The notes under the pieces are model-generated. The model was not told the origin of the DNA. It saw nothing but the letters and a program-made list of their open reading frames with translations, and ran no database searches. This document shows positions 58,000 to 60,646 of a stretch of DNA of 64,000 nucleotides, piece after piece. The stretch lies in NCBI GenBank assembly GCA_003971905.1, contig RSEE01000003.1, positions 1,178,001 to 1,242,000 of the forward strand. The letters run 5' to 3'. This stretch comes from Moniliella sp. 'wahieum'. Taxonomy: Eukaryota. A program made the position numbers and the translations under genes. The first letter of the stretch is position 1; every line of letters begins with the position of its first letter.

Positions 58000-60646
58000 C
58001 TATACGGCATGCTTTGCCTTGGCAATCCACCGGCCCATTTTGCCCTTTTTACCATCGCGCATCTCCAGTGCCTCCTCGTCCGCGGGAGGACCAGAATAGT
58101 CCTGAGCCGCAGCCGGACTGCCCCCCTCCCGCCCCGCAGCATTCGGCGTCCGCAGACGCGAGTCATGCCCATAGGCATACTCGTTGTCCGAATCCCAACC
58201 AGCCTCTGCCGCCTCTGGTGAGTCAGAAAAAGCCACGCGGGGCGCACCCGGCGCGTACTTCTCCGCATCGGTGCGCTTCTTTTTCTTGCCCAAACCCGGG
58301 ATGCGAAGCAAATCCTTCATGCCCCGCTTGTCCCCATCCACCCGAACCAGCGTGGGCGCCCGAATCGGTCCCGAGCCCCGTCAACGGCAAAGGGGTAGGA
58401 GCGACGCTCGGCGCTTGGCTCCGGCGCTGACGGCGTCGGTGAGCCGCACGTCGGTTTTCCTGTTCCTGCAAATGCAGCGCAAGGGCAAAGCTGGGAAACG
58501 CAGTAGCATAGCATCAGTATACAAACAAGCCGGGTTCCCCGCTAAAAAAGGGGGGGGGGGGATGAACATACTCGCTGTCCGTCTGATCCGTCGATCCATT
58601 TTGGCCACCGGGCTGCTGGGCCGCCGCCGCCGCCGCCGCTGCGGGCTCACGTTCGGCCGGCCGGGACGGGATAACGGCTCCAATACGCTTGAGTCGGTGC
58701 AACCAAGCGCGCTGCTCCATGGCCGGAAGCGGATGGAGACGGCCATCAAAGGCCACAGGTGCAGGCACGGCAAGTGCAGCGTCTTTTCCCCGCCGGCAGG
58801 ACCGGATCCCAGTGGGTCCGACGGTTCTCAGCCCAAGCCAAACCGGGTCGTCATCCAAGCGCCAAAGCTGTTGGTTGGCCAGGACGAACACACCTGGAGC
58901 GCCATCGGCCTCGGCACTCAATAACTGGGTCGTGGTTGACAATTGTTCCGACGACGGCACATAGATCACGTCCATTCTTCCCGCGCGGTAGAGCACGGCG
59001 AGGCCATTTGACTGGGATGAAGATGCCGCGCGCACAATATCGCCAAGTGCAAAGAGCGCTGCCCACGACAGGCCATGGTCGCCCACGCTTTCCGATGCAG
59101 GGCCTGTGGCTGTGGATGACACAACAGGCGGCAAGAAAGGGGGCGCAAGATCGAGTGTGGTCAAAAACGTTTGTATCGCCACTGCCGCCCGGGCCGCCCG
59201 TTCGTCCGCCTCATTGAGGGTGACCGCCGAGGGAGCCTTGCCCTTGGCCGAATTGAACACGGTCCTAAGCTCCGCCAATCCTTGGCCTGAAATTTGTCGC
59301 GCAGTCACGTCGGCCTGAGCCACAAACTTGCTCAGCCGATCCACATCGGCAGTAGCCGTGAGGCGTAGAGCGTCAATGGCAGTCTGATTGGTGGCATCGA
59401 GGAGGCCGCCGTGGGCCAAGTCGACACCAGCCATGCGGAAGAGTGCGATCACCCCACGGTGGATACGCGCGGCTTGGGTCTCAGAGCCTGCGTTGTTAGG
59501 CGTGGGGGCAGGGAAAGCACGCGCATCCGTCAGACTGGCGTTGAGGGTAACGCGACGAGAGAGGTAAGGAAGGACACTGAGTGCATCTTCGAGCGAACCA
59601 GGCGCGTCGGGGGTAGGGTCGTCGCGTCCCAACAGGTACTCCCCCACGAGCGAGAGGAGAGATAGGCATGGTCCACAGCAGGACGGTTCGGAGGCGTAAG
59701 AGTCAGCTCCCCGCGCAGAAGGAGAACGTTGACCAGAGCAACGAGGGGCGTAGCACCAAACTCATTCTGCCGGATCACTTGCCGGTCCGTAACAGTTCCG
59801 TCAGATTGTTGGAAAACGATTCGCTTCACGTCCCACTGGACCCCATGATCGTTTGGCGGAGGCTCGTCCTTCTCAGGCGGAGCGGTAGCCACAGACGAAA
59901 TAGGAAGAGGCGCACCTAGTCCGGGCGTCGGGCTAGTGGAAACCGCAAACGGAGACGGGGCCGCCACCGGGGAAACGCCAAATGGCGATGAGGAATCCAA
60001 CTGAGATAAATCACCAAATGGAGAGGGTTGCGGGGGCGGTTGAGACAATCACTAAATTGCGAGGGTTGCGTGGGCAGTTGAGTGTGTAGATACGGCTGCT
60101 GCTGCTGCTGTTGGGAGACAGGTAGATCAAACGGTGACGCTGAAAACATTGAACTCCCTGACGGCTCTTGGTGAGTGGGCTGGGCAAAGGGGTTCGTGGC
60201 AGCAGATGGGGACACGAAAGCCTGTTGGCCCTGAGCACCGGCGCCGGTAGAGGAGGCGAAGCCAAACACATCAGCCGAAGGTGCAGGAGGAGGAGCAGGC
60301 GCAGGAGCAGGAGCCGGAGCAGGAGCCGGAGCAGGAGCGGAAGTGAAGAAGTAGTCCTGGGGTTGGGCACCAAAGCTGAGTCCAGCAAGGTCGTTCGTAA
60401 GGGAATTGCTTTGTGGCACGGCTGGAGGCAGTGCGAATGGGTTGCTGCCCAAGGTCAGCGAGCCTTGGTCCGCCGGCGAGGCAAAGGCGGGTGCGGGCGC
60501 ATGGGCGAAGGGCGCGATGGGCTCGGGGGCTGCAAATGGATTGGACTTGTCATTCCCCGCAGCGTCGGGGTAGGGACCGAAAAGGGGTTGCTGGGGGGCG
60601 GCGCCGAGGGCGCAGGAGACGGCAGGAACGGATTGGTGCCGCTCAT
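58000..60646 (-). CDS. MINDY (DUF544) deubiquitinase-fold protein, predicted catalytically inactive, with an NPF-rich N-terminus and a MIU-like motif; intron at about 58491-58571
   Basis: WDVKRIVF..VIRQNEFGATPLVALVNVLLLRG, LFRMAGVDLAHGGLLD and VLYRAGRMDVIY align to MINDY blocks (QN.NGPC.L.A..N.L.LRG; LF....I.L.HGW..D; .FRN.H..V.Y). Spliced DSDFALALHLQEQE. Confidence 0.85.

Follow-up and report, generated by a model that had tools for sequence, protein, structure and literature searches.

The 64,000-nucleotide stretch of DNA analysed here (the window) comes from Moniliella sp. 'wahieum' (GenBank assembly GCA_003971905.1, contig RSEE01000003.1, positions 1,178,001 to 1,242,000 of the forward strand), and all coordinates below count from its first letter. 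On the minus strand (-), at 58000-60646, it carries a GC-rich, eukaryotic gene homologous to MINDY deubiquitinases (DUBs). We consider that this gene codes for a real fungal pseudo-deubiquitinase of the MINDY-1/2 (Miy1, FAM63) branch, which is maintained by selection and may act as a non-catalytic adaptor; to this reading we assign a probability of roughly 0.6. The pseudo-DUB status itself is well supported. All three residues of the catalytic triad are replaced and the domain has no cysteine, so that the catalytically dead MINDY proposed in an initial annotation, which was made from the sequence letters, holds.

The Pfam family MINDY_DUB (PF04424, gathering cut-off 27 bits) was matched above the cut-off by two of the five translated pieces of the gene: the piece 59533-60048 (-) with 37.4 bits (residues 71-132 against profile positions 2-58) and the piece 58517-59761 (-) with 30.4 bits (residues 35-201 against positions 56-188). 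The remaining three pieces, namely the region rich in the motif Asn-Pro-Phe (NPF) and two C-terminal frames, had no Pfam match. Against a profile of six canonical fungal MINDYs, hhalign paired the Cys box with a probability of 96.4 and 47% identity over 38 columns (QNLNGPCSFIALCN versus QNEFGATPLVALVN), and the rest of the domain with a probability of 97.3 and an E-value of 1.6e-11 over 225 columns. The same alignment, with which MAFFT agrees, sets LYRAGRMDVIY against the canonical His box LFRNSHLSVLF and VFVLANQ against LFTLVTD. A phmmer comparison with human MINDY-2 from the PDB, weak when taken alone (E 0.17), aligned RQVIRQNEFGATPLVALVNVLLLRGELTLTP to TPIITQNENGPCPLLAILNVLLLAWKVKLPP of the human protein, with GPCPLLAIL against GATPLVALV. 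The conserved blocks LSxLVG(D/E)YLL, LxxLP and ALF are also present in the domain. The MINDY identity suggested in the initial annotation is thus borne out both by PF04424, on two adjacent frame pieces, and by hhalign. Structure prediction was uninformative: an AlphaFold2 model of a 365-residue domain piece (12-row alignment, frame pieces unjoined) had a mean predicted local distance difference test score (pLDDT) of 47.5, and with this low-pLDDT model Foldseek found nothing in the PDB at E ≤0.001, its best match (E 0.99, PARP domains) being meaningless.

The altered catalytic and ubiquitin-pocket motifs are located as follows.

59749-59769 (-): Cys box QNEFGAT; Thr (ACG, 59751-59749) occupies the position of the catalytic Cys, and the oxyanion Gln is retained
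59405-59416 (-): AHGG where the family has a conserved xHGW; Gly stands at the position of Trp240 in the ubiquitin Leu73 pocket
58973-58990 (-): His box YRAGRM; Arg (AGA, 58978-58976) occupies the position of the catalytic His, and Asp that of Ser321
58871-58885 (-): VLANQ, aligned to the canonical LVTD; the third triad residue, Thr335, is replaced by Asn

The human residue numbers are anchored on C137 and H319 of MINDY-1, as given in passages of PMC4942677 and PMC8550791, and were transferred through the alignment of a canonical fungal MINDY (P0004) with MINDY-1; they are therefore alignment-based and not structural. In these terms, the functional positions compare as follows (the role of Thr335 is taken from a passage of PMC8550791).

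Gln131, oxyanion hole: Gln kept
Cys137, nucleophile at the start of helix alpha-1: Thr
His319, general base in the FRNxH motif: Arg
Ser321, inhibitory Ser: Asp
Thr335, third triad residue: Asn
Val210, Leu73 pocket: Leu
Trp240, Leu73 pocket: Gly
Tyr258, Leu73 pocket: Val
Phe315, Leu73 pocket: Tyr

Two of the four Leu73 pocket positions (Trp240 and Tyr258) are thus non-conservative losses. Among the canonical homologues, GPC is present in all four that cover the Cys box and FRNSH in all six that cover the His box. The Thr and the YRAGRM block that had been read from the letters at about 59749 and at the His motif were both found there, the Thr being aligned to the catalytic Cys by phmmer as well as by hhalign and the Arg to the catalytic His. 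Moreover, all eight coding segments are devoid of Cys. The long open reading frame (ORF) has a single Cys codon, which, according to the relatives described below, falls within a stretch that is out of frame in the assembly (58790-58827). If the frame break at 60050 sat a few codons further 3', one Cys (in SDC) would be possible in the disordered N-terminal region, and the MINDY domain would still have none. Judged by its residues, thiol-protease (papain-type) chemistry is excluded for the MINDY domain because it is devoid of any cysteine.

The two key substitutions are not indel artefacts, because each needs a change at all three codon positions (ACG versus TGY and AGA versus CAY). In addition, at least 10 residues on either side of both motifs are in register with the family. 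A contig of a ~98% identical relative spans 59540-59800; it has no difference at the Thr codon among the four of its six differing letters that are listed, and no indel besides the one at 59652. Another contig of this close relative ends at 58975, just short of the His box (58990-58973), for which the window sequence is the sole source. The initial annotation had held the substitutions to be in-frame and not indel artefacts. This stands for the catalytic codons, whereas frame breaks elsewhere in the gene had been overlooked.

The layout of the gene, including these breaks, is the following.

58000-60646 (-): whole coding region of the MINDY-like gene, with the ATG at 60646, the stop codon at 58002-58000 and one intron; split over three frames as assembled
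59848-60646 (-): N-terminal Pro/Ser/Ala-rich low-complexity region of ~261 residues, in which the frame breaks near 60578, within a C4T4 run, and near 60050, within a C-run
58572-59847 (-): MINDY_DUB-homologous domain, in frame 0 down to ~59656 and in frame 2 for the remainder; no cysteine codon in the coding frames
59650-59655 (-): frame break from 0 to 2 in a CT-rich run; the contig of the ~98% relative is 2 letters shorter at 59652
58790-58827 (-): ~12 codons out of frame in the assembly; the relatives' contigs have CA inserted behind 58826 and A behind 58789
58491-58571 (-): intron of 81 nt, GTATGT...CTGAT...CAG with a pyrimidine run
58457-58492 (-): helix (D)FALALHLQEQE, resembling a motif interacting with ubiquitin (MIU); FALALHLQEQE lies at 58489-58457, after the intron, and the D is supplied by the flanking exons
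58003-58340 (-): C-terminal tail in frame 0 with the basic patches GKKKKR (58290-58273) and KKGKMGRWIAKAK, ending in ...AKHAV

As assembled, the gene contains four frame breaks and one local misread of 12 codons. The frame changes from 2 to 1 near 60578, from 1 to 0 near 60050, from 0 to 2 near 59652 and from 2 to 0 near 58340, and none of these four changes leaves space for an intron. Introns were considered as their cause and rejected, since the available GT..AG pairs of 32, 42, 52, 68 and 94 nt (sequence inspected by eye) are too short, in the wrong phase or stop-creating. The segment 58571-58491 is read as an intron because splicing alone removes the frame 2 stop there. No in-frame stop occurs inside any assigned frame segment, and the Pfam alignment runs on over the 59652 break, leaving one frame at profile position 58 and entering the next at position 56. 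GC content at third codon positions did not discriminate between frames in this genome.

The frame breaks are almost certainly assembly indels, because other genes of the window are broken alike, contigs of a relative restore the frame and differences from the relatives cluster at third codon positions. In the neighbouring genes, a break was called where consecutive parts of a Pfam profile lie in different frames with no space for an intron, the junctions being computed from coordinates. A PP1-type phosphatase (43988-44986 (+)) has two breaks, with GDIHGQ...GDYVDRG, LRGNHE and the remainder of the enzyme in three frames at contiguous coordinates. SART-1/Snu66 (11966-14476 (-)) has at least four direct breaks, and one each is found in the formin FH2 domain (19926-22005 (-)), in a Peptidase_S10 carboxypeptidase (46219-47822 (+)) and in MKT1_C of Mkt1 (52484-53978 (+)). 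PP1 and Snu66 are essential genes, and therefore the broken copies are not pseudogenes. Over the genes examined in the window, the assembly indel rate is about 1 per 0.5-1 kb of coding sequence. For the MINDY-like gene itself, Logan contigs of the ~98% relative (run X1) have 2 letters fewer at 59652, CA behind 58826, A behind 58789 and CT inserted behind 58340, and all four of these indels bring the frame back. The 2-letter correction at 59652 yields a gapless family match (DHAYLSSLVGEYLL versus TYSFLSALVGDHLL). Frameshift or pseudogene calls made from this indel-rich assembly are suspect, and accurate reads are needed first. We also observed that the HIND motif of the Snu66-like gene (13900-14400 (-)) lies in a different frame from the SART-1 domain (13133-14476 (-)), 138 nt apart, which may reflect an intron or another indel.

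Run X1 contains two relatives of the locus (57950-59874), one with ~98% and the other with ~81-87% DNA identity, both on short contigs of low depth. The more distant one is present in run X3 as well, at 59310-59398; this relative may represent a second species or a paralogue. Run X2 yielded no matching contig. In the coding frames, 40 single-letter differences are listed, 13 from the close contigs and 27 from the ~85% contigs (X1 and X3), with five further differences beyond these 40. Among those listed, 26 fall at third and three at second codon positions (binomial p = 4e-5 and 1e-4, respectively; three of the listed differences fall in one codon), and scoring every site on its own gives 28 synonymous and 12 non-synonymous changes. 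Because the differences cluster at third codon positions, purifying selection on the MINDY-like gene is supported, by data that are fragmentary in that the contigs cover part of the gene. A decaying pseudogene, which the initial annotation had allowed for, is at odds both with this clustering and with the frame restored by the relatives.

The N-terminal region of 261 residues contains five [S/T]NPF motifs (60634-60626, 60589-60581, 60542-60534, 60443-60435 and 60194-60186 (-)), of which the first two are, as assembled, in a different frame from the other three. There are ten PF dipeptides in total, and the five that are not part of NPF comprise four SPF and one APF. The five NPF and several SPF noted initially were therefore all recovered. 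In 20,000 shuffles of the region, the mean NPF count was 0.15 and the maximum three; none reached five. Moreover, five of the nine Asn residues of the region lie within NPF, and all five follow Ser or Thr; because of this, the array looks selected and not compositional. NPF was absent from all 11 canonical homologues. The same region also includes an (Ala-Pro)n repeat of GCTCCN units (60279-60347 (-)) that attracts hundreds of unrelated contigs. Most X3 contigs align there, and the summed depth over the repeat, up to ~3500 in this run, is meaningless.

The MIU-like helix (DFALALHLQEQE) directly follows the domain, at the position where canonical fungal MINDYs carry theirs (D-LALARQLQHEE, AALARQLQREEE, IDLALARQLQHEED and AALARQLQREEEE); the C-terminal MIU-like motif of the initial annotation is accordingly confirmed as FALALHLQEQE at the canonical position. 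In a metagenomic MINDY (L001) the counterparts are EQLALQLQREEE, AELARRLQAEE, EQLALQLQREEEQ and AELARRLQAEENA. Judging by motif likeness, the MIU helix appears to be kept, and ubiquitin binding is predicted for it. The far C-terminus is different from that of canonical proteins. The window protein ends in ...KKGKMGRWIAKAKHAV, ...AKHAV and has no CaaX box; none is hidden in the other frames at the 3' end (read by eye), and a relative's contig covering the last 38 codons (57950-58115) has no indel. By comparison, a CaaX box (CVVM, CCIM and CTIM) is present at the end of all three canonical fungal homologues whose C-terminus is complete. These three (P0005 from Phenoliferia, P0007 and P0008) also have GPC/FRNSH and a single MIU-like LALARQLQ helix, and their CaaX boxes widen the yeast prenylation finding to other fungi. 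As a separate observation, L001 (88-1146 (+) of an AT-rich metagenomic contig) encodes a canonical MINDY in its entirety; its MIU motifs are in tandem (EQLALQLQREEEQ and AELARRLQAEENA), and its open frame, which ends in ...GGPPPYIQ, lacks a CaaX.

NPF motifs are ligands of EH domains in endocytic scaffolds, several NPFs in a disordered region being the classic arrangement of such ligands, and MIU helices bind ubiquitin. Based on these motifs, an endocytic role is plausible: the protein may be a non-catalytic adaptor that would be recruited to endocytic sites through binding of its NPF array to EH-domain proteins (Ede1/Pan1/End3-type), while ubiquitinated cargo or machinery would be bound by the MIU helix, possibly together with remnants of the dead domain's ubiquitin-binding surface. 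The NPF array might then take over the function of the prenyl anchor by which Miy1-type enzymes reach the plasma membrane. In passages of PMC11847538, CaaX boxes are given for MINDY1 (CILL), Miy1 (CVVM) and Miy3 (CVIM); Miy1 and Miy3 are described as plasma-membrane proteins through CaaX, and localisation of Miy3 requires the box. The same source reports that Miy1 catalytic mutants still supported Fus3 activation and that a prenylation mutant did not, which makes a catalysis-independent and location-dependent function of the family credible. The initial annotation had proposed a pseudo-DUB serving as a ubiquitin-chain reader or adaptor in endocytosis. The dead DUB, the enrichment in NPF and the position of the MIU agree with this; chain reading by the domain itself is made less likely by the loss of Trp240 and Tyr258. 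In its most specific form, the proposal is that a Miy1-type plasma-membrane DUB has been rebuilt as a cysteine-free, epsin-like endocytic adaptor, with the prenyl anchor swapped for the NPF array, the triad erased and the MIU kept as a ubiquitin handle, and that it would deliver or shield ubiquitinated cargo instead of trimming chains. This we put forward only tentatively and regard as less likely than not.

Several points weigh against our reading of a selected, non-catalytic MINDY adaptor. The loss of Trp240 and Tyr258 weakens the case that the dead domain could grip the ubiquitin tail or read chains; in human MINDY-1, mutation of either residue abolishes cleavage, according to a passage of PMC4942677. 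The contig alignment of the more distant relative stops at 59765, four codons before the Thr, and 58976-59539 is covered by no close contig, so that compensating indels are possible there. The division of the differences into close and far contigs was made by the analyst from depth and span, and only the listed differences were used. The orthologue comparison consists of two fragmentary relatives only (~98% and ~85% DNA identity). Overall, the finding is limited by its dependence on one error-rich locus and by the lack of a set of orthologues.

What could be questioned before any function is whether the gene is intact and its substitutions genuine. Given the indel rate noted above (about one per 0.5-1 kb of coding sequence), the loss of the catalytic residues could itself be an artefact of an error-prone assembly. 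This is the least credible of the explanations considered, as both motifs lie in frames that match the family for at least 10 residues on each side, Cys to Thr and His to Arg need three-position substitutions and not indels, the short-read contig of the relative over 59540-59800 has no listed change at the Thr codon, and further conserved positions are altered as well (HGW to HGG, LVTD to LANQ). A decaying pseudogene, in which the frameshifts would be real and the catalytic loss part of the neutral decay of a former MINDY gene, would fit the four frame breaks and the local misread as assembled. It would also fit the strong divergence, the best MINDY match among 1.84 billion representatives having an E-value of 6e-4 and 28-33% identity. 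However, like breaks are present in the essential genes PP1 and Snu66 of the window, the relative's contigs restore all four breaks that they cover, the listed differences are strongly biased by codon position (26/40 third, 3/40 second) and the assigned frame segments are free of in-frame stops. We therefore regard decay as improbable.

If the gene is real, as we think, it may still do something other than endocytic adaptation. A dead MINDY scaffold could act outside endocytosis: it might be a scaffold in signalling or at the plasma membrane, or else partner or regulate an active MINDY paralogue, with the NPF/PF region being generic low-complexity sequence or binding a non-EH partner. The support of Fus3 signalling by Miy1 catalytic mutants (PMC11847538) is in line with such a role. 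So is the binding of NPF motifs to a non-EH receptor, POLE2, described in PMC12808100. The basic patches of the C-terminal tail could bind membranes by themselves, and pseudo-DUBs are, in passages of PMC9139131 and PMC10919355, commonly allosteric partners of active DUBs. The array itself speaks for EH ligands, as five of nine Asn lie in NPF, always after Ser or Thr, and look selected. It is also well established that EH ligands classically carry several NPFs within disordered sequence. We find a role outside endocytosis rather unlikely, yet it deserves consideration. Much less can be said for an enzyme with non-canonical chemistry, such as a ubiquitin esterase using the Thr as nucleophile. 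The oxyanion Gln is kept, and weak Ub-Ser esterase activity is described for the Cys-less OTULINL (bioRxiv 10.64898/2026.10.20.760496). In the window protein, however, neither the nucleophile nor the general base nor the third triad residue is retained, the His position being taken by Arg, and two Leu73 pocket residues are lost, which makes residual catalysis very improbable.

Relative to known systems, the nearest is formed by MINDY-1/MINDY-2 (FAM63A/B) and yeast Miy1 (YPL191C), K48-specific cysteine DUBs of PF04424, with which the window protein shares the homologous domain, the oxyanion Gln and the MIU-type helix. It differs from them in Cys137 to Thr, His319 to Arg, Thr335 to Asn, Trp240 to Gly and Tyr258 to Val, in having no cysteine and no CaaX, and in its 261-residue NPF/PF-rich N-terminal extension; with the nearest canonical fungal MINDYs that were retrieved it shares only 22-33% identity. 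Epsins, such as yeast Ent1 and Ent2, carry ubiquitin-interacting motifs and NPF motifs. The window protein would resemble them in combining a putative ubiquitin-binding helix with NPF in disordered sequence, a functional analogy only; in contrast to epsins, it has no ENTH/ANTH domain (no Pfam match besides MINDY_DUB), and its folded domain is a dead protease. The canonical fungal MINDY P0004 has a match (E 3e-19) in the PDB entry 6k6l, which bears the title 'pseudo deubiquitinase' and for which we found no citing paper. From this title we guess that 6k6l is yeast YGL082W. This MINDY-family protein (Miy2 or Miy3) has no detectable DUB activity according to a passage of PMC4942677. In YGL082W the catalytic residues (PMC4942677) as well as a CaaX box (PMC11847538) are present, as far as the passages go, whereas the window protein has lost both. 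Pseudo-DUBs such as OTULINL likewise have a DUB fold without catalytic residues and are presumed scaffolds or binders (PMC9139131, PMC10919355). Those described in the passages of these two papers are animal proteins, with no fungal FAM63-type member or NPF fusion among them. Pseudo-enzymes are already recognised in the MINDY family (a passage of PMC9139131, citing Walden et al. 2018). A FAM63/Miy1-type MINDY lacking the whole triad and the CaaX and carrying an NPF array was not found in the open-access literature. The biology of MINDY enzymes is little known, and yeast Miy1 at the plasma membrane hints at a catalysis-independent function. A natural MINDY without triad and prenyl anchor, under selection and with an endocytic docking array, would amount to a separation-of-function allele. 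As predicted from its motifs, it points to a possible non-catalytic, ubiquitin-binding role of MINDY proteins at the membrane, with a link to EH-domain proteins.

Database searches returned few relatives. Word-indexed homologue searches with the 365-residue domain piece ('longer' and 'near' lengths) found nothing, and words of poly-Ala and poly-Pro may have crowded out relatives in them. An exhaustive HMMER search of 1.84 billion representatives gave three matches at E ≤0.001 and none at E ≤1e-10. One of the three, P0001, was rejected as an unrelated repeat protein; the best true relatives, P0002 and P0003, have E-values of 6e-4 to 7.5e-4 and 28-33% identity. A profile search retrieved only canonical basidiomycete-type MINDYs (11 in total, the two source-named ones being from Leucosporidium and Phenoliferia). 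Of two scans of JGI metagenomes, the first found nothing and the second the canonical MINDY L001. The ESM Atlas had no usable neighbours for the domain (best score 0.84).

No EH-domain protein is encoded within the 64-kb window. The neighbours are fungal and include a Zn2Cys6 cluster protein, SMI1/KNR4, Mkt1 and a Diaphanous-type formin. The MINDY-like gene is flanked on the same strand by a Zn2Cys6 transcription-factor-like ORF downstream (56856-57506 (-)) and by a WD40 beta-propeller gene upstream (61477-62706 (-)).

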